Assembly (NCBI GenBank): GCA_964612745.1
Contig: CAZTCH010000004.1
Coordinates: forward strand, 29,382 to 93,381
Source of the DNA: an uncultured Candidatus Saccharibacteria bacterium
GTDB taxonomy: Bacteria; Patescibacteriota; Doudnabacteria; UBA920
DNA: 64,000 bases
Reading direction: 5' to 3'
Shown: piece by piece, positions 14,230 through 61,036 of the stretch
Layout of the letters: every line of letters starts with the position of its first letter
Position numbering within the stretch: position 1 is the first letter of the stretch
Program-made: the position numbers and the translations under genes
The notes under the pieces: generated by a model
What the model was told of the DNA's origin: nothing
The model's database searches: none
The model's input: the letters and a program-made list of their open reading frames with translations, nothing else

Positions 14230-14870
14230 ACCTCCTCCCCGAGTTCCGCAAAGCCTACACTCGGGGTATCCAACACGGCATGAATACTAAAAGCTTCGGA
14301 TAATGAGATTCGTTAAAAGAGTCTGGTTGTCTGGGGCTTTTCTTTCTTGCCCTGCCACTCAATGTACTTCTTAACCTGCTCCTCGTTCAATCCGTTTGTT
14401 GACGAGAAATACCCCACACTCCAGATGCCGTCCCATTCTAAATACATTTCTTTGATAAATTTAAACTTCTTTTGGATGTGGATACTACTGTTGGCTTTTA
14501 ACCTTTGGACGGCATCTGAGACAGCCATATTGGGTGGTATTTCGATTTGAATATGAACATGGTCTTGGTCTGAATTAACAGCTGTAATGAAGAGTGTGGG
14601 ATATTTCTTGCAGGTTTGGTAGAGACTTGTCTTTAGTTCTGCTTTAACGTAGTCTTTGAGCCACTTTCTCCGGTGCTTAGTGCCCCAGACAATGTGATAC
14701 AAGTGTCGATATGCGCAATGGTTAAGGCTTTTCGTCTTCATGCAACCAGCCTACCACGAATTCCAACGCAATGGGAATTCGTTCCCGGGATCCCATTCAT
14801 CCCCAGACCGCGACAATGAGAGTGGTGACTTGATTGCTTTCTAGAGGGTCGCTGGTCTGGGGTTTCCTGG
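14230..14870 (-). mobile_element. IS200/IS605-family insertion sequence (tnpA only) with subterminal hairpins
   Basis: Y1 transposase ORF flanked by hairpins: CCCCGAGTTCCGCAAAGCCTACACTCGGGG at 14237-14266, CGAATTCCAACGCAATGGGAATTCG at 14757-14781, and CCCCAGACCGCGAC...GTCGCTGGTCTGGGG at 14801-14862. Lies between the comEC start and the hisS terminator. Confidence 0.6.
14313..14741 (-). CDS. tnpA: IS200-type Y1 transposase TnpA
   Basis: 142 aa; YHIVWGTKHRRKWL and HxH motif (DHVHIQIEIPP), with the catalytic Tyr region near the C-terminus. Confidence 0.9.
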   Translation of the reverse strand: MKTKSLNHCAYRHLYHIVWGTKHRRKWLKDYVKAELKTSLYQTCKKYPTLFITAVNSDQDHVHIQIEIPPNMAVSDAVQRLKANSSIHIQKKFKFIKEMYLEWDGIWSVGYFSSTNGLNEEQVKKYIEWQGKKEKPQTTRLF

Positions 14871-41280: not shown

Positions 41281-41643
41281 TCAAGAGCGCATGGTGTTAA
41301 TCATAGCATTCAACATTTTCATAACTTCTGTAAGCACACTTTTTACCTTTTTAATTTCATTTTGATTTGCAAGCCCCAGCATAGAAGCAACTTCTATCTG
41401 AGTTTCAAGTTCTGCGCCTGAAGCAAAAGCGATGGTAAGAAACTGACAATAATCTTTTTTGGTGCTTCTATATCTACCCTCAGCAATATTTGAAGGAATA
41501 GAAACTGCACTGCGCCTCATCTGCGACACTAAACCGAACCTTTCAGCATCAGGAAACTGAGCACTGAGCTCATAAACAAATTTAACTACCACCATTGCTT
41601 TTTGCCAAACAATTAAATCTCTATAACTTTGCTTTGTTTCCAT
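41281..41643 (-). CDS. four-helix-bundle protein (TIGR02436 / '23S rRNA intervening-sequence protein' family; same fold family as DGR Avd)
   Basis: 120 aa; YRDLIVWQKA...SQMRRSAVSIPSNIAEGRYR...FLTIAFASGAELETQIEVA. Inserted between DUF3467 and dnaJ inside the dnaK operon. Confidence 0.85.
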   Translation of the reverse strand: METKQSYRDLIVWQKAMVVVKFVYELSAQFPDAERFGLVSQMRRSAVSIPSNIAEGRYRSTKKDYCQFLTIAFASGAELETQIEVASMLGLANQNEIKKVKSVLTEVMKMLNAMINTMRS

Positions 41644-46834: not shown

Positions 46835-47200
46835 ATGATTCAAAGCCATAAAGACCTCATAGTTTGGCAAAAGTCGATTACCTTAGTGACAGAGATTTAC
46901 CTTCTTACAAAAAACTTTCCGAAGGAAGAAATGTTTGGCCTAACGAGCCAAATTCGACGTACGGCAGTCTCAATACCTGCAAATATCGCCGAAGGTAGGA
47001 ACAGAGGTAGTAAAAGAGATTTTAGACACTTTTTATTGATTGCTTTTGCATCAGCAAATGAATTAGAGACACATTTGCTTATAGCAAAAAACCTATCTTA
47101 CACCACAGAAAATGAATTTTCTAGCACAACTGTTGCCACCACAGAAATATGCAAAATGTTGAGCACGATGATTAATAAATTGTCTGAACCTAGCTCCTAG
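46835..47200 (+). CDS. four-helix-bundle protein (TIGR02436 family), second copy
   Basis: 121 aa; HKDLIVWQKS...SQIRRTAVSIPANIAEGRNRGSKRDFRHFLLIAFASANELETHLLIA. Confidence 0.85.
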   Translation: MIQSHKDLIVWQKSITLVTEIYLLTKNFPKEEMFGLTSQIRRTAVSIPANIAEGRNRGSKRDFRHFLLIAFASANELETHLLIAKNLSYTTENEFSSTTVATTEICKMLSTMINKLSEPSS

Positions 47201-56845: not shown

Positions 56846-57094
56846 AGTCCCCCCTATTTTGATGCATTCTAAATCTGTATCTACGAAGCTGTATACGAGA
56901 AGCTTCGAGTACCGTTTGAAGTAGGCGCGATTGCCTGCCCCAAATTAGAACTCGAAAACGCCAGAAACCCTAAACAAGAAAACATACTATACCATATATC
57001 CACAAAAAATACAAGATTGACCAGAACCCCAATTTTCCAGTATGCTAAATGTGCTTTAGTTGGAATTTTCTATTCATAAGTCACTTTCCACTAT

Positions 57095-57343
57095 TTGTTT
57101 AATTCCATGAAACTTCTCCCTCAGATAATCCAGCTAGCAAACATTATTTCAATGGTTTTGCTTATCATTTTCATTACTTTGCAAAACCGCTCTCAGGGGC
57201 TTTCCACCGTTTTTGGTGGTTCCGGTACTATTACCGGTAGTCGCCGTGGGTTTGAAAAATGGTTGTTTTACGCAACTATTGTGGTAGCAATTCTTTTTTG
57301 CGGACTTAGCATTGCCAGCATCTTGATTGCTGTCAAAGCCTAA
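57095..57343 (+). CDS. secG: preprotein translocase subunit SecG
   Basis: Two TM helices flanking a Gly-rich loop (QGLSTVFGGSGTITGSRRG). The start may be the ATG at 57107. Confidence 0.75.
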   Translation: MFNSMKLLPQIIQLANIISMVLLIIFITLQNRSQGLSTVFGGSGTITGSRRGFEKWLFYATIVVAILFCGLSIASILIAVKA

Positions 57344-57349
57344 CCTTTT

Positions 57350-59044
57350 GTGAGGACATACACTATCCCCCACATATCCATACCGAAACTTTCCACCATT
57401 CGGAAAGTTTTTTCACTCTTACAGCCAGCAGAAAAATGGCTGGTCATGTTTTTATGCGTCACCATAATCCTCACTGGATTTTGGAATTGGCGTATTTTTT
57501 ATGCACGACACACGACGAGCATTCCTACTACTGGCGGCAGCATCACCGAAGGTGTGGTTGGACAACCAGAAGTAATCAACCCACTTCTCGCCACCACCCC
57601 CACAGACGAAGCTCTGGTACGCGCACTGTTCAGTGGTCTGTACCGCTACAACGAAGTGGGCCAAATCGTTCCCGACCTTGCTGCTGCTCTTCCAGAAATA
57701 AGCCCAGATGGCAAACAGTACCGCATTACTCTGCAAAACGATTTGCACTGGCATGATGGAGCACCACTCACCGCAAACGATGTGCTTTTTACTATTGCCC
57801 AAATCCAAAACGAAGCAATTGGCAGCCCACACAGAGAAGCTTGGCTTTCTACCACAGTGCAAAAGATAGACGACGTAACTGTAGTCTTTACCACCAAAGA
57901 AGTCAGTGGCCCATTTTTGCACAACCTAACTCTCCCACTCCTTTCTGAGCGAGCGTGGAAGACAATACCTGCAAGCCAATACAAACAATCGAGCAACAAC
58001 TTAAAACCAATTGGCAATGGTCCATTTAGCTTTGACCAAATAAAGAAAAACCCGACAGGGCAATACAGCATGCTCATTTTAAAACGGTTTGCCTTACACC
58101 CACGAGCGCCACACATAGACGAACTTCGTATTGCATTTTACGAAAACAGTTCAGACCTTACCCAAGCGTTTATTAACGGTAACGTCCAGCTTGTCGGTAG
58201 CATTGCTAGTGAAGCACCTGCAGAACTGGTAGAAACCCGTGCGAAACAAACCACCAGTCTGCTTGCGCAATATCAAGCTGCATTCTTCAACACCGAACGA
58301 CCAGTGCTCAAAGAGTTAGCTGTTCGCAAAGCGTTACGCATGGCAGTAGACAGCACTGCTATTGCAACTACAGCTTGGCAAAACAAAAACCGTGCGATTT
58401 CAGAAACACCATTTGGGCTCATGCTGGGCACAGTCAAAACCGCGCAGAGTAATGCAGCAACCGCCGCACAAATACTGGAAAATGCTGGGTGGCGCAAAAA
58501 CGCGCAAGGCATTCGTAGTAAAGGTGGCACCGCGCTCACTTTACACCTCTACACGAGCAGTAACCCTTCGTTCCGAGCAGCTGCTGAACTCCTCGCAGAA
58601 ACATGGAAACCACTTGGCGTACAAGTGATTGTGCATGCCGTACCCACGAACACGCTCATTGCCGAACATGTCCGCCCACGAGAATATGACATTTTACTAT
58701 TTTCACAACGCACAAGTGTAGACCCTGACCCTTTTGCATTTTGGCATTCTAGCCAAACCAAAGACCCTGGGCTGAACGTGTCCAACTTTGCCTCAAACGA
58801 AGCAGACCAGCTGATTACCGCAGCACGCAAAAATACCAACATAGCACTGCGCACTCCACTGTACGACCAACTCAAAGGCTTACTCGACACCCAAATCCCC
58901 GCCCTATACCTTACACAAGTTCAGTACACCTACTTCTCCAAAGATACAGTCACCACCCCTAGCATGAGTGGGTTACCTGACCCCAGCTGGCGCATGTCGT
59001 TTCTGTCTGATTTTTACGCTGAACAAAGCAGACGCTGGAAGTAA
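57350..59044 (+). CDS. ABC-transporter family-5 substrate-binding protein (Opp/Dpp-like), membrane anchored
   Basis: 564 aa; N-terminal TM anchor followed by an SBP_bac_5-like domain (RYNEVGQIVPDLA...). Confidence 0.8.
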   Translation: MRTYTIPHISIPKLSTIRKVFSLLQPAEKWLVMFLCVTIILTGFWNWRIFYARHTTSIPTTGGSITEGVVGQPEVINPLLATTPTDEALVRALFSGLYRYNEVGQIVPDLAAALPEISPDGKQYRITLQNDLHWHDGAPLTANDVLFTIAQIQNEAIGSPHREAWLSTTVQKIDDVTVVFTTKEVSGPFLHNLTLPLLSERAWKTIPASQYKQSSNNLKPIGNGPFSFDQIKKNPTGQYSMLILKRFALHPRAPHIDELRIAFYENSSDLTQAFINGNVQLVGSIASEAPAELVETRAKQTTSLLAQYQAAFFNTERPVLKELAVRKALRMAVDSTAIATTAWQNKNRAISETPFGLMLGTVKTAQSNAATAAQILENAGWRKNAQGIRSKGGTALTLHLYTSSNPSFRAAAELLAETWKPLGVQVIVHAVPTNTLIAEHVRPREYDILLFSQRTSVDPDPFAFWHSSQTKDPGLNVSNFASNEADQLITAARKNTNIALRTPLYDQLKGLLDTQIPALYLTQVQYTYFSKDTVTTPSMSGLPDPSWRMSFLSDFYAEQSRRWK

Positions 59045-59105
59045 CATATTGGCAGAGCTAGTATTCTTCGGCTATACTACACACTGTTGCGATAGCTAGG
59101 CTTTT

Positions 59106-59143
59106 GCCCAGGTGGTGGAATTGGTATGGTAGCGTATAAATGA
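59106..59143 (+). repeat. degenerate duplicate of a Leu-type tRNA 5' portion (GCCCAGGTGGTGGAATTGGTATGGTAGCG)
   Basis: Shares TGGTGGAATTGGTAT with the tRNA-Leu D-arm 34 nt downstream. Its 5' acceptor strand GCCCAGG is complementary to the TTCTGGGC 3' acceptor strand in unit X at 59296-59303. Confidence 0.5.
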
Positions 59144-59144
59144 T

Positions 59145-59231
59145 GGGCGTATGGTGGAATTGGTATACACGTACGCTTCAGGTGCGTATGGGAGTAATCC
59201 CGTGAGAGTTCGAGTCTCTCTACGCCCACCA
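59145..59231 (+). tRNA. tRNA-Leu (anticodon CAG), long variable arm, CCA encoded
   Basis: GGGCGTA acceptor, TGGTGGAATTGGTA D-arm (the Leu signature), anticodon loop UUCAGGU, variable arm GGGAGTAATCCC, T-arm GAGTTCGAGTCTC, ...TACGCCCACCA. Confidence 0.8.
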
Positions 59232-59303
59232 TTTATATACAACACGTCCCGCCGCATGGCGGGGTGACCGCAAGGTCGTGGAGGTTCGAGTCCTCTTCTG
59301 GGC
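59228..59303 (+). repeat. tRNA-3'-half-like unit X (ACCA + 19-nt spacer TTTATATACAACACGTCCC + hairpin + T-arm + acceptor 3' strand + ACCA). A partial copy lies at 60402-60456.
   Basis: 59228-59282 is identical to 60402-60456 (55/55). Confidence 0.7.
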
Positions 59304-59380
59304 ACCATTTATATACAACACGTCCCGATGTCGCATCGGGATGGGAGCAATCCCGTGAGAGTTCGAGTCTCTCTACGCCC
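59304..59380 (+). repeat. 77-bp direct repeat Y-left (contains the 3' 40 nt of tRNA-Leu: variable arm + T-arm + acceptor 3' strand). Putative attL.
   Basis: Identical to 60325-60401 (77/77). The internal GGGAGCAATCCCGTGAGAGTTCGAGTCTCTCTACGCCC matches tRNA-Leu 59192-59228 with one mismatch. Confidence 0.8.
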
Positions 59381-59425
59381 GCAGTAAGAAAAAAGTATCG
59401 GCAGACCCGAGTGCTTTTAAAAAAT

Positions 59426-60241
59426 ATGTCTCACGGATTAACATATATAAAATCAAAAGGTAAATGTATTTATTGCGATAAATCAGATACCGATCTTAGC
59501 GATGAACATATTGTACCACTTTCCCTTGGCGGCGTTCATATTATACAAAAAGCGAGTTGTTCTAATTGTGCAAAAATAACAAGTGGTTTTGAAGGTAACG
59601 TTGCTCAGGGTTTATGGGGTGATGCGAGGGTAGCTTTTAACGCTCCGACGCGACACCTTAAAAAAAGAAAGGGTGTTATTTCTACTAAAATTTCTCAAGG
59701 CACTAAAGAAATTGAAATTTCAAGTACTGAATATCCTGCCGGCTTTGTTTTTTACCGCATGAATATTCCAGGTATATTACAAGGACTACCAGAAAATAAG
59801 GATGTTTCTGCTTTATGGACAATGGATATGGTTGACGATGACAAAAGGAGAGAGGATTTTTTTAAGAAACACGGTAGCTATCCAACACTAAAGTTTAAAC
59901 ACGTACCTCAAGATTTTGGGCGAATGCTGATTAAGATAGGCTATGGACATATTCTGACCTTTCTCGAGCCTGAAGATTTCAACCCTTTCTGTTTGCCATA
60001 TATTTTGGGAGAAAAACAAAATGTATCTTATTTGGTTGGGGAGCAGGCAAAAAATGTTGCTCCTAGCCTTGACCTGGGATATTCGCTTCATGCAAAAGGT
60101 TTTGTGATTTCAGAAAATAGACTTTTACTAATTGCAATAGTTAGACTTTATGCGAACACACATTCTCCTGAATATGAAATAGTGGTTGGTGATGTTCTTG
60201 GTTTTGAAAAAATTACTCAAGTTTTGAAAAAGATAACATGA
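59426..60241 (+). CDS. HNH-endonuclease-domain protein (N-terminal CxxC...HIVPLSLGG...CxxC HNH motif; C-terminal about 200 aa of unknown function) on an AT-rich cassette
   Basis: 271 aa from the ATG at 59426; the track ORF upstream extension is read-through of the tRNA-like repeats. GC is about 35%. Confidence 0.6.
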   Translation: MSHGLTYIKSKGKCIYCDKSDTDLSDEHIVPLSLGGVHIIQKASCSNCAKITSGFEGNVAQGLWGDARVAFNAPTRHLKKRKGVISTKISQGTKEIEISSTEYPAGFVFYRMNIPGILQGLPENKDVSALWTMDMVDDDKRREDFFKKHGSYPTLKFKHVPQDFGRMLIKIGYGHILTFLEPEDFNPFCLPYILGEKQNVSYLVGEQAKNVAPSLDLGYSLHAKGFVISENRLLLIAIVRLYANTHSPEYEIVVGDVLGFEKITQVLKKIT

Positions 60242-60324
60242 CCTAAGTGCCCCACAAACCCAAGAGAAAAGTGCTAGAATGTCCTTACAAGGGTTATATC
60301 TCTGGGTACTTAACCCGAGTGGTC

Positions 60325-60401
60325 TACCATTTATATACAACACGTCCCGATGTCGCATCGGGATGGGAGCAATCCCGTGAGAGTTCGAGTCTCTCTACGC
60401 C
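60325..60401 (+). repeat. 77-bp direct repeat Y-right (putative attR)
   Basis: See Y-left. Confidence 0.8.
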
Positions 60402-60480
60402 CACCATTTATATACAACACGTCCCGCCGCATGGCGGGGTGACCGCAAGGTCGTGGATGCTTAAATCTTCTTCCGAGGAG

Positions 60481-60522
60481 CAGTAATAGTGGCTGACCAA
60501 TTTGGTCAGTCACTATTACTTT
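60481..60522 (+). terminator. near-perfect 18-bp hairpin (AGTAATAGTGGCTGACCAA-TTT-GGTCAGTCACTATTACT) followed by TTTG
   Basis: Visible palindrome immediately after the repeat block. Confidence 0.6.
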
Positions 60523-60623: not shown

Positions 60624-60652
60624 TTGACAAAAGCAGATGACCAAGCTATAAT
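60624..60652 (+). promoter_or_regulatory. consensus sigma70-type promoter TTGACA-N17-TATAAT, about 385 nt upstream of rnj
   Basis: Perfect -35 and -10 hexamers with a 17-nt spacer; no ORF with a Shine-Dalgarno downstream until rnj. Confidence 0.6.
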
Positions 60653-61036
60653 GTGTTGGCAAGTAGACGAACTCCAAAGAAACAAAATTCTTACAGTTTA
60701 CAAATCAGACCTAGAAAACAGTTTTTTATTTTTGATTTGTTAATTGTGCCCCATCTTTTTGTGGGACCAAATTCTTATTGTGGCGATTGCATAAATCACA
60801 CGGTAAGCCTCAGGCATTTTTTGCCCAGCACGAGTTAACAATTTGCGTAATTCGAAAGAGCATAGCATCTACTGACGTTTATTAGGTGCAGAGATAAGAC
60901 GCTATATTTCTCAAGAATTATTCTTCTATCAAATAAGTGGCGAACCAGCTTTTCGCGACCAATAATACAGCGACCGATTTTATTTTACCGCTTGTTATTC
61001 TGGACCTGCACGAGCTGGTCACCACAATAGACACAC

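Follow-up and report, generated by a model that had tools for sequence, protein, structure and literature searches.

Between the genes for an SBP_bac_5 protein (SBP) and RNase J, a 64,000-nt stretch of a Doudnabacteria genome (uncultured Candidatus Saccharibacteria bacterium, assembly GCA_964612745.1, contig CAZTCH010000004.1, positions 29,382 to 93,381 of the forward strand; hereafter the window) carries an intact tRNA-Leu(CAG) gene, a series of tRNA-derived remnant units, and a single-gene cassette encoding an HNH_5 nuclease, which lies between two perfect 77-bp direct repeats. The reading that we favour, while giving it about an even chance of being correct, is that the locus is made of two layers: an inherited nested tRNA, and a genome-specific HNH module that moved as a small DNA unit at sequences resembling tRNA 3′ ends, either with an enzyme supplied in trans or with the assistance of homology, the HNH gene itself being cargo. 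The first layer, shared with a sibling genome, would consist of the live tRNA-Leu(CAG) and its pairable short flanks, lodged inside the D-loop of an older, dead allele. The second layer, found in this genome only, would be a block that starts right after the ACCA of a first remnant unit (X) and brings in a module composed of a conserved head, the HNH_5 gene and a conserved tail. This module would have been inserted precisely at the point where, in a second remnant unit (Y), the acceptor stem gives way to ACCA, with a perfect 77-bp second copy following it. The features concerned are listed below in window coordinates.

59049-59078, + strand: promoter-like sequence TTGGCA-18-TATACT upstream of the outer 5′ fragment (consensus scan, 10/12 matches)
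59106-59127, + strand: A5, positions 1-22 (acceptor strand to D-loop) of an apparent older GCCCAGG-type tRNA-Leu(CAG) allele (nhmmer profile positions 1-22)
59128-59144, + strand: h5, left flank of the inserted live tRNA, in which GCGTATAAAT can pair with TTTATATAC downstream of the tRNA
59145-59231, + strand: intact tRNA-Leu(CAG) of the GGGCGTA acceptor type, with encoded ACCA (ARAGORN; Rfam tRNA, 53.4 bits)
59232-59307, + strand: unit X, comprising spacer (with the right flank h3 and the D-stem 3′ strand ACAC-G), hairpin, variable arm, T arm, TCTGGGC and ACCA
59304-59380, + strand: left copy of the 77-bp repeat (ACCA plus unit Y; Y proper is 59308-59380)
59381-59425, + strand: cassette head, 45 nt, GCAGTAAG followed by an A-rich run and GTATCGGCAGACCCGAGTGCTTTTAAAAAAT, conserved in other loci
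59426-60241, + strand: HNH_5 nuclease open reading frame (ORF), 271 aa (Pfam HNH_5)
60242-60325, + strand: cassette tail, a conserved non-coding element of about 85 nt ending in ...GGTACTTAACCCGAGTGGTCT, with homologous tails in relatives
60326-60402, + strand: right copy of the 77-bp repeat (ACCA plus unit Y′), 77/77 identical to 59304-59380
60403-60481, + strand: unit X′, comprising ACCA, spacer, X hairpin and variable arm, equal to X over 55 nt, with degenerate T arm and acceptor strand
60482-60520, + strand: terminator-like 19-bp inverted repeat closing the remnant array (repeat search)
60624-60652, + strand: promoter of the RNase J gene, consensus TTGACA-17-TATAAT, the right limit of the variable region (consensus scan)

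The HNH segment is a foreign, mobile, low-GC (guanine plus cytosine) module made of head, ORF and tail. It occupies 945 bp between the 77-bp copies (59381-60325) and has a GC content of 37.1%, against 48.4% for the SBP gene and 44.7% for the RNase J gene. Positions 59404-60321 are 87% identical to positions 589-1506 of locus L010 (loci of other genomes are referred to here by such numbers), where the copy lies amid unrelated genes, and positions 59379-60242 are 79% identical to L001. Because these alignments span it, the homologous unit fills exactly the space between the 77-bp copies. Close homologues of the HNH gene are found in at least five different gene neighbourhoods. Across the family, the head is laid out as GCAGTAAG, an A-rich run and GTATCGGCAGACCCGAGTGCTTTTAAAAAATATG, and it is conserved before the HNH gene or its partner gene (see below) in L001 (twice) and L006, before a second cassette in L010, and after an intact tRNA 3′ end in L172 (CCTCTCCGCCA). 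The tail ends in relatives with ...GGTACTGAACCCGAGTG-N-CCCGCA; homologous tails follow the HNH gene in L010, L006, L170, L001 and L173, and a reversed Peptidase_S51 gene in L010. Indeed, the HNH tail of L010 runs directly into a second head (...GAGTGACCC|GCAGTAAG...), forming an uninterrupted tail-head junction, and this second head-to-tail unit (L010:1511-2270) carries the Peptidase_S51 gene on the opposite strand and is closed by a second tail. Since the peptidase unit has both, head and tail are the ends of an element and not mere untranslated regions of the HNH gene.

The neighbourhood of tRNA 3′ ends recurs in these loci. The head follows 3′ fragments of tRNA-Ser(GGA) in L001 and a degenerate T-loop-like stretch in L006-L009, while L010 begins with a tRNA 3′ end. 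In the window, both junctions fall exactly at acceptor-stem|ACCA positions, the left one reading TACGCCC|GCAGTAAG and the right one GAGTGGTCT|ACCATTTA, and they fit a reciprocal exchange between a tail-head junction and a tRNA 3′ end (...TACGCCC|ACCATTTA...). Modules in other genomes have no long flanking repeats; the 77-bp duplication is therefore not an obligatory signature of insertion. A few further observations concern the module and its surroundings. Downstream of tRNA-Ser(GGA), L001:4944-5125 holds a terminator hairpin, an inverted tRNA-Ser-like 3′ fragment with an insertion, and a direct 3′ fragment abutting the head. A motif of about 12 nt (GACCCGAGTGCT / GACCTAAGTGCC / AACCCGAGTGGT) is present in three direct copies in the window, 25 nt before the HNH start (59404-59415), across the stop codon (60239-60250) and at the tail end (60312-60323), and related motifs stand at the same positions in L010, L006, L001 and L173. 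The head folds weakly (-9.5 kcal/mol). The idea that the tail is a structured RNA or an attC-like hairpin was discarded, as RNAalifold found no consensus pairs on 7 tails, and so was the idea that it is a degenerate tRNA 3′ half, as its alignments to the 3′ ends of tRNA-Ser and tRNA-Leu were no better than shuffles (z<2.5).

The remnant units that frame the module are built on a common plan. Each consists of a spacer, a GC hairpin substituting for the anticodon arm, a variable arm of class II, a T arm and the acceptor 3′ strand. The 19-nt spacer TTTATATACAACACGTCCC is present in four copies (starting at 59232, 59308, 60330 and 60407), each with ACCA immediately 5′ of it, against a chance expectation of about 0.01 matches, and its last bases, ACAC-G-T, correspond to the D-stem 3′ strand and position 26 of the tRNA. 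Unit X matches positions 44-87 of the tRNA-Leu(CAG) profile; its hairpin CCCGCC-GCAT-GGCGGG, with a 4-nt loop, stands where the anticodon arm would be. Unit Y combines the spacer, the hairpin CCCGATG-TCG-CATCGGG and the 3′ 40 nt of a GGGCGTA-type tRNA-Leu in its C variant, and ends at the acceptor stem. Identity between the two 77-bp copies stops at their exact ends, with zero extra bases on either side. An exact match of 87 nt links 59196-59282 to 60371-60457, and the full 126-nt repeat (59188-59313 / 60363-60488) is identical at 113/126 positions, with mismatches only at 59195 and in the degenerate 3′ end of X′. ARAGORN and Rfam both call a single tRNA in the region, tRNA-Leu(CAG), and orphan T-arms are found in the 64-kb window at this locus only. 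Y-type hairpin units are also present in L012 and L177.

Much of this anatomy had been given in a preliminary description of the window. The complete tRNA-Leu(CAG) at 59145-59231, the ACCA and shared 19-nt spacer opening the units, the 77/77 repeat, the 55/55 copy of the start of X (which is contained in the 87-nt match) and a 271-aa ORF with a zinc-HNH motif (which passes the Pfam HNH_5 threshold) all hold. Other statements required adjustment. Unit Y was said to contain the last 40 nt of tRNA-Leu; it is a near-identical copy, 39/40, with a single T>C difference from the 40 nt that precede ACCA in the tRNA (59195/59348). The insert, described as 944 bp of about 35% GC, is indeed of low GC but has the size and composition given above. 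A 5′ fragment pairing with X was also described, and the acceptor pairing is real; the fragment, whose profile match covers 59106-59127, is better read as half of an older allele than as a scar of 3′-end integration.

The position of the locus is conserved among relatives. The genes around it in the window encode UvrC, a response regulator, SecG, the SBP_bac_5 protein, RNase J and TrpRS. Scanning with the RNase J protein, one genome per species, yielded 79 loci, labelled as Doudnabacteria, Saccharibacteria or Patescibacteria metagenome-assembled genomes (MAGs) with 3 exceptions bearing other phylum labels. The order SecG-SBP-tRNA-Leu(CAG)-RNaseJ-TrpRS is kept in about 50 of the 79. The gap between the tRNA and RNase J ranges from 162 to 3636 nt and is filled with unrelated genes per lineage: pilin-like proteins, secreted proteins, an IS1595-like transposase (L074) and a MazG-like gene (L012). 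The SBP-RNase J interval is thus the conserved home of tRNA-Leu(CAG) and a real hotspot, as the preliminary description had proposed, the gap being variable across about 50 related loci. Shortly downstream of the RNase J promoter, 60693-60801 is conserved in L012 and L013. None of the 79 relatives has an HNH homologue at the RNase J locus by tblastn, and no exact database match to the HNH, SBP or RNase J proteins of the window is on record.

The closest comparison is provided by a sibling MAG, which shares 97% identity with the window in SBP (L176) and 93% in RNase J (L011). L176 is colinear with window positions 56903-59307 at 93.3% nucleotide identity, and both the live tRNA-Leu(CAG) and unit X are identical in it. 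Homology ends at 59307, the last base of the ACCA of X, beyond which L176 has a terminator hairpin and other sequence. It follows from this endpoint that A5, the tRNA and X are inherited, and that the part from 59308 to at most 60948 appears to be specific to the genome of the window. The sibling contig ends 163 nt after X and the next contig starts 88 nt before RNase J, an assembly break that suggests repeats or strain heterogeneity at the same spot. The L176 copy of A5 (L176:3700-3740) has an insertion of about 37 nt in the D-loop region (alignment gaps of 22, 15 and 2 nt) that is absent at window 59118-59121. In the more distant L177 (SBP 59% identical), A5 and the live tRNA are followed by one Y-type unit and then a terminator; in L176 as well, a terminator hairpin comes after the last remnant unit. 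In L012 (RNase J 79% identical), positions 1-720 hold two to three Y-type units after tRNA-Leu, one of them with a 55-nt T-loop insertion, and a small MazG-like pyrophosphohydrolase gene occupies, after these units, the position of the HNH gene of the window.

The live tRNA of L177 has the C variant that is seen in Y and Y′ of the window, unlike the T of the window's own tRNA, which hints that the Y-HNH-Y′ block may have come from the allele of another lineage. This observation raises the question of whether the dynamics of a tandem array could by themselves account for the locus: X, Y, Y′ and X′ would have arisen through unequal crossing-over or gene conversion, and the HNH gene would have been trapped, or imported by homologous recombination with another strain's allele. 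The C variant in Y speaks for such a history, as do the unit arrays without cargo in L012 and L068, the inner and outer 3′ halves of L177, which look homogenised, and the break of the sibling assembly in the region. However, array dynamics explain neither the exact acceptor|ACCA ends of the foreign module nor the presence of the same module after tRNA 3′ ends of other isotypes, and we consider this account quite improbable.

The inherited layer is itself unusual. Judged by their sequence, A5 and X together make up an older tRNA-Leu(CAG) of the GCCCAGG type, one half each, whose D-loop was apparently interrupted; the gap is occupied by the live gene together with flanks of about 30 nt. The acceptor strand of A5, GCCCAGG, pairs with TCTGGGC of X through six Watson-Crick pairs and one G-U pair, and the minimum free energy fold of 59106-59307 shows an outer acceptor stem, then a flank helix, then the inner cloverleaf. 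In the window the pairing of the flank helix is weak and AT-rich (p=0.27 against shuffles). A counterpart of A5 is found in L176 and in L177, and the intact tRNA-Leu(CAG) genes of relatives are of several acceptor types, among them GCCCAGG/CCTGGGC in L024, L029, L032, L045 and L052, and GGGCGTG/CACGCCC in L014, L068 and L070. Extra tRNA-Leu fragments are present in 20 of 56 related loci, with breaks at about positions 22-26, the 5′ fragments stopping at about 22-29 and the 3′ fragments beginning at about 14-15, about 24, 35 or 44. In 9 of the 12 loci that have a 5′ fragment, the acceptor strands of this fragment and of the 3′ fragment further downstream complement each other; counted over the 56 loci, a matched outer pair is present in 9-12. 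The inner gene is bracketed in many loci by the inverted repeats CCCCGCAC...GTGCGGGG and lineage-specific complementary extensions, whose pairing beats shuffles (p<=0.02) in L015, L020, L023, L031, L036, L046, L067, L078, L176 and L177. Nested tRNA-Leu(CAG) genes with bracketing inverted repeats are seen in L067 (4100-4640), L020, L023, L030, L031, L046, L078, L015, L036 and L070; L067 has three nested levels, and inner and outer alleles are frequently of different acceptor-stem classes (GGGC... vs GCC.../GCT...). It was considered whether the CCCCGCAC inverted repeats derive from a genome-wide miniature inverted-repeat transposable element; this origin was rejected, as in 1.29 Mb of loci (about 12 kb sampled per genome) they are almost confined to the surroundings of the inner tRNA-Leu.

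The outer tRNA-Leu copies look dead. Those of relatives show ATCA or GTCA ends, acceptor mismatches and an altered anticodon loop (L078), and their D, anticodon and T loops contain inserted GC-rich hairpins; in the window, a hairpin replaces the whole anticodon arm. Such hairpins are carried by the 3′ fragments of L020, L023, L031, L046, L052 and L067, by the 5′ fragments of L036, L046, L067 and L078, and by L012:60-130. They sit at recurrent points, the anticodon-loop form being TT[TCCGCC...GGCGGACAGG]CAGGT, and the T-loop inserts (CCTG+CCCCGTACC...) resemble reversed D-loop inserts (...GGTACGGGG+CAGG). A functional split or intron-bearing outer tRNA was ruled out by the 4-nt-loop GC hairpin standing for the anticodon arm here and by the decayed outer copies of relatives. 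A group I or other intron, or a ribozyme, was likewise discarded: Rfam detected the tRNA alone in the region, with no intron ribozyme match at the gathering threshold or at E<=1, and the 130 nt of non-coding cassette DNA are too short. A 2026 survey of tRNA introns in Patescibacteria describes group I introns only (PMC13011429).

No comparable nested tRNA arrangement in bacteria was found described in the literature, the nearest case being archaeal (PMC3293823). In Caldiarchaeum subterraneum, a 5′ tRNA-Thr fragment lies upstream of a newer copy and is attributed to a mobile element bearing a recombinase (PMC3293823). The likeness is that the 5′ fragment of an older allele precedes a complete, newer copy of that tRNA. 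In the archaeal locus, the fragment and the new gene are separated by a 1.8-kb element that encodes a recombinase (PMC3293823), whereas the bacterial insert of the window is about 120-200 nt long, bounded by inverted repeats and devoid of genes, and the outer 3′ half is still in place. That tRNA-Leu(CAG) genes are serially nested within dead outer copies full of hairpins, across a clade of Patescibacteria, is the more surprising element of the locus, more so than the HNH cassette.

Regarding expression, the promoter-like site at 59049-59078 probably drives the entire nested tRNA precursor. Together with the terminator-like repeat at 60482-60520, it suggests that the tRNA, the remnants and the HNH gene could form one transcript. 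On the minus strand, the Y hairpin with its spacer (59323-59341, 60345-60363) scores as intrinsic-terminator-like, with an 8-bp stem and a T-rich tail.

The protein encoded by the module matches Pfam HNH_5 (PF14279) over residues 14-49 (E=1.2e-8; 35.1 bits, cutoff 27.5). Its zinc-ribbon HNH domain covers about residues 9-56, and the zinc cysteines and the catalytic His of the beta-beta-alpha-metal core are invariant. The C-terminal 200 aa had been described as resembling nothing recognisable; the whole protein in fact belongs to a conserved full-length family (182 hits, 47-91% identity, about 100% of length), in which 119 of the 120 listed homologues carry PF14279. The few named members come from Pacebacteria, Binataceae, Nitrospinae and Hyphomonadaceae. 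An AlphaFold2 model built on a 26-sequence family alignment reaches a predicted local distance difference test (pLDDT) score of 92 and a predicted template modelling (pTM) score of 0.91, and the large conserved C-terminal domain has no match among solved structures. The protein is probably an active nuclease, with its specificity predicted to reside in this new C-terminal domain. In most close relatives, a partner gene of 148-254 aa lies upstream of the HNH gene on the same strand (L001:5189-5935, L006:2302-3039, L004:209-973, L174:1991-2503, L170:3411-3872 and L010:139-585). The partner is variable in sequence and sometimes overlaps the HNH gene by 4 nt; it has no Pfam match and only one marginal match in PADLOC (Cas8b, E=0.0011). 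It is absent from the window, whose cassette either lost it or never had one. Across the family at large, tyrosine integrases (5 loci, 4 distinct contexts) are among the genes nearby, as are an IS1595 transposase and DUF2971; no tRNA is predicted immediately adjoining the HNH gene in these loci, and orphan tRNA 3′ ends occur in a few. An anti-phage or abortive-infection effector had been put forward as a possibility; the HNH protein matches no known defence system in PADLOC-DB 2.0.

Free-standing HNH homing endonuclease genes are exemplified by the mob genes of phage T4. The HNH gene of the window shares with them its small size, patchy distribution, atypical GC content and precise conserved insertion site. 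One may therefore ask whether it is itself a free-standing homing gene, whose product would cut tRNA 3′ ends at acceptor|NCCA, with break repair copying gene, head and tail from an occupied allele. The genuine HNH motif with its invariant catalytic and zinc residues, a large C-terminal domain that could read DNA, junctions exactly at acceptor|ACCA-type positions, the location beside tRNA 3′ ends in at least five contexts, the 87% nucleotide identity between copies in different neighbourhoods, and the low GC are all compatible with this idea. HNH homing genes are, moreover, reported in tRNA group I introns of Patescibacteria (PMC13011429). Yet the window gene is cellular, with a conserved 200-aa C-terminal domain that has no solved analogue, and its family usually comes with a partner, which is unusual for homing genes. 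The peptidase gene of L010 is enclosed by the same head and tail, the wider family lies in chromosomal islands beside integrases or transposases and not near tRNAs, Rfam finds no intron, and no intein is present. A phage origin was rejected as well, since no relative of the HNH protein was found among the 2.9 million viral contigs of IMG/VR. Homing would also leave the 77-bp duplication unexplained. The gene is present at this locus in the window only (0/79 relatives) and elsewhere at other sites, a pattern that resembles transposition or cargo more than homing. Homing thus appears unlikely, and the HNH protein is most likely cargo, as a selfish or defensive nuclease, and not the integrase of the module.

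tRNA genes are classic landing sites of mobile DNA, and the usual picture is that of a large island whose own integrase inserts it while the entered tRNA is repaired. Applied to the window, this picture, which is that of the preliminary description, would have an element with a tyrosine or serine integrase enter the 3′ half of tRNA-Leu, the 77-bp repeats being attL/attR and the integrase being lost or located elsewhere. Partial tRNA copies at attL/attR are well-known integration scars (Reiter 1989 and Williams 2002, cited in PMC9897764), and tRNA fragments arising from element integration are documented (PMC9897764). The locus resembles such scars in that perfect direct repeats of a tRNA 3′ segment bracket foreign DNA of different, low-GC composition at a site that varies between relatives; HNH homologues lie beside tyrosine integrases in other phyla. 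However, the left repeat is part of the second remnant unit after the tRNA (Y), some 73-76 nt past it, and is not the 3′ end of the functional gene; this contradicts a classic attL/attR pair. Besides, 37 nt of the repeat (spacer and hairpin) are not tRNA sequence, the cassette is a single 0.8-kb gene, and modules in other genomes lack long flanking repeats. Integration at a 3′ end also yields no 5′ fragment such as A5 upstream of an intact gene, whereas here a matching 5′ fragment stands upstream with the live gene nested inside. The absence of an integrase, already remarked upon, is borne out: none is present in the cassette, and phmmer with 4 tyrosine integrases was negative on the 58 ORFs of the window. 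The classical tRNA-targeted island accordingly seems a decidedly poor candidate. The earlier observations are confirmed and their interpretation is partly supported, the foreign mobile insertion with ends at tRNA 3′-end junctions being upheld by the low GC content, the copies elsewhere and the exact junctions.

Altogether, we prefer the two-layer reading, in which recombination would have taken place between the ...CC|GCA tail-head junction of the module and ...CC|NCCA ends of tRNAs (the target here being ...CC|ACCA). The recombining enzyme may have been supplied in trans, or homology between remnant units may have assisted. Three routes could have produced the 77-bp duplication: a pre-existing Y-Y tandem, as cargo-free arrays are known in L012 and L068; a circle of 1022 bp that contained a single Y and entered by homologous, Campbell-type recombination; or staggered cleavage of two consecutive |ACCA sites spaced by 77 nt, with the ends then filled in. 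Several points weigh against this reading. No recombinase was identified, the phmmer search of the 64-kb window with integrases from related loci being empty, though a weak test. The sibling lacks the block directly after X, but the exact empty Y|ACCA site was not found; the sibling contig stops 163 nt past X, and the HNH gene may lie further on in that genome. Site-specific insertion at a 3′ end creates no 77-bp duplication by itself. The only non-HNH cassette seen with both head and tail is that of L010. Finally, the tail shows neither similarity to tRNA 3′ halves nor a conserved fold, so that its role as an attachment site is a guess.

The module can also be compared with other integrase-dependent or transposase-dependent systems. 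Integron cassettes are similarly single promoterless ORFs with a conserved non-coding 3′ element, arranged in head-to-tail arrays, and HNH_5 (PF14279) is listed among their common cargo functions (PMC7370490). Unlike them, the module has no IntI or attI in the window and no attC-like hairpin in its tail, its cargo can stand in reverse orientation, and its arrays start at tRNA 3′ ends. Members of the IS200/IS605 family and their non-autonomous derivatives likewise insert 3′ of a specific short sequence and make no short target duplications; the cassette ends differ in that the family's defining subterminal hairpins are missing. An IS200-like Y1 transposase gene is present in the window at 14313-14741 on the - strand, 45 kb from the cassette (Pfam Y1_Tnp, E=1e-28), with a flanking hairpin at 14237-14266 (CCCCGAGT...ACTCGGGG). 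A link between this hairpin and the cassette motif ACCCGAGTG was set aside: they share the 7-mer CCCGAGT only, possibly by coincidence, and it is not used as evidence. Both ends of the HNH cassette, head and tail, contain the CCCGAGT-bearing motif, a variant of which is found at the stop codon. Elsewhere in the window, two paralogous ORFs of about 120 aa, at 41281-41643 (- strand) and 46835-47200 (+ strand), share an N-terminal Y/H-[RK]DLIVWQK motif and, by eye, resemble the four-helix-bundle "23S rRNA intervening-sequence protein" family PF05635. A protein of the PF05635 family is annotated beside TrpRS in L177.

A more far-reaching possibility, which we regard as tentative and rather unlikely, is that the locus reflects two linked and undescribed tRNA-centred mobile DNAs of Doudnabacteria-like Patescibacteria, one a replacement module for tRNA-Leu(CAG) and the other an integrase-less cassette system. 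The former would be a complete tRNA gene, sometimes with an AT-rich upstream spacer, carried between inverted repeats of 8-14 bp (CCCCGCAC...GTGCGGGG or AT-rich variants). It would insert into the D-loop of the resident tRNA-Leu(CAG) and overwrite it repeatedly, to three levels in L067, after which the dead outer copies would gain their GC-rich hairpins in the D, anticodon and T loops. The latter would consist of head-cargo-tail cassettes, with HNH_5 as one example of cargo, using the acceptor|NCCA junction of tRNAs or of their remnants as attachment site.

That tRNA genes serve as integration sites and keep fragments as scars is known (PMC9897764); what is new here is tRNA-associated mobile DNA in a variant form. 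It departs from known islands in having a single nuclease gene as cargo, conserved ends and no recombinase, in entering precisely where acceptor|CCA meet in a dead tRNA fragment, and in the apparently repeated replacement of an essential tRNA-Leu(CAG) by copies entering its own D-loop. In practical terms, such loci break MAG assemblies and confuse tRNA annotation. The HNH_5 family is widespread and uncharacterised, and a defined target site would be a useful lead to its function. If the proposed reading is true, the locus would offer a concrete system for gene flow in the ultra-small, recombinase-poor Patescibacteria, and would parallel, in bacteria, the disrupted tRNA genes seen in Archaea.

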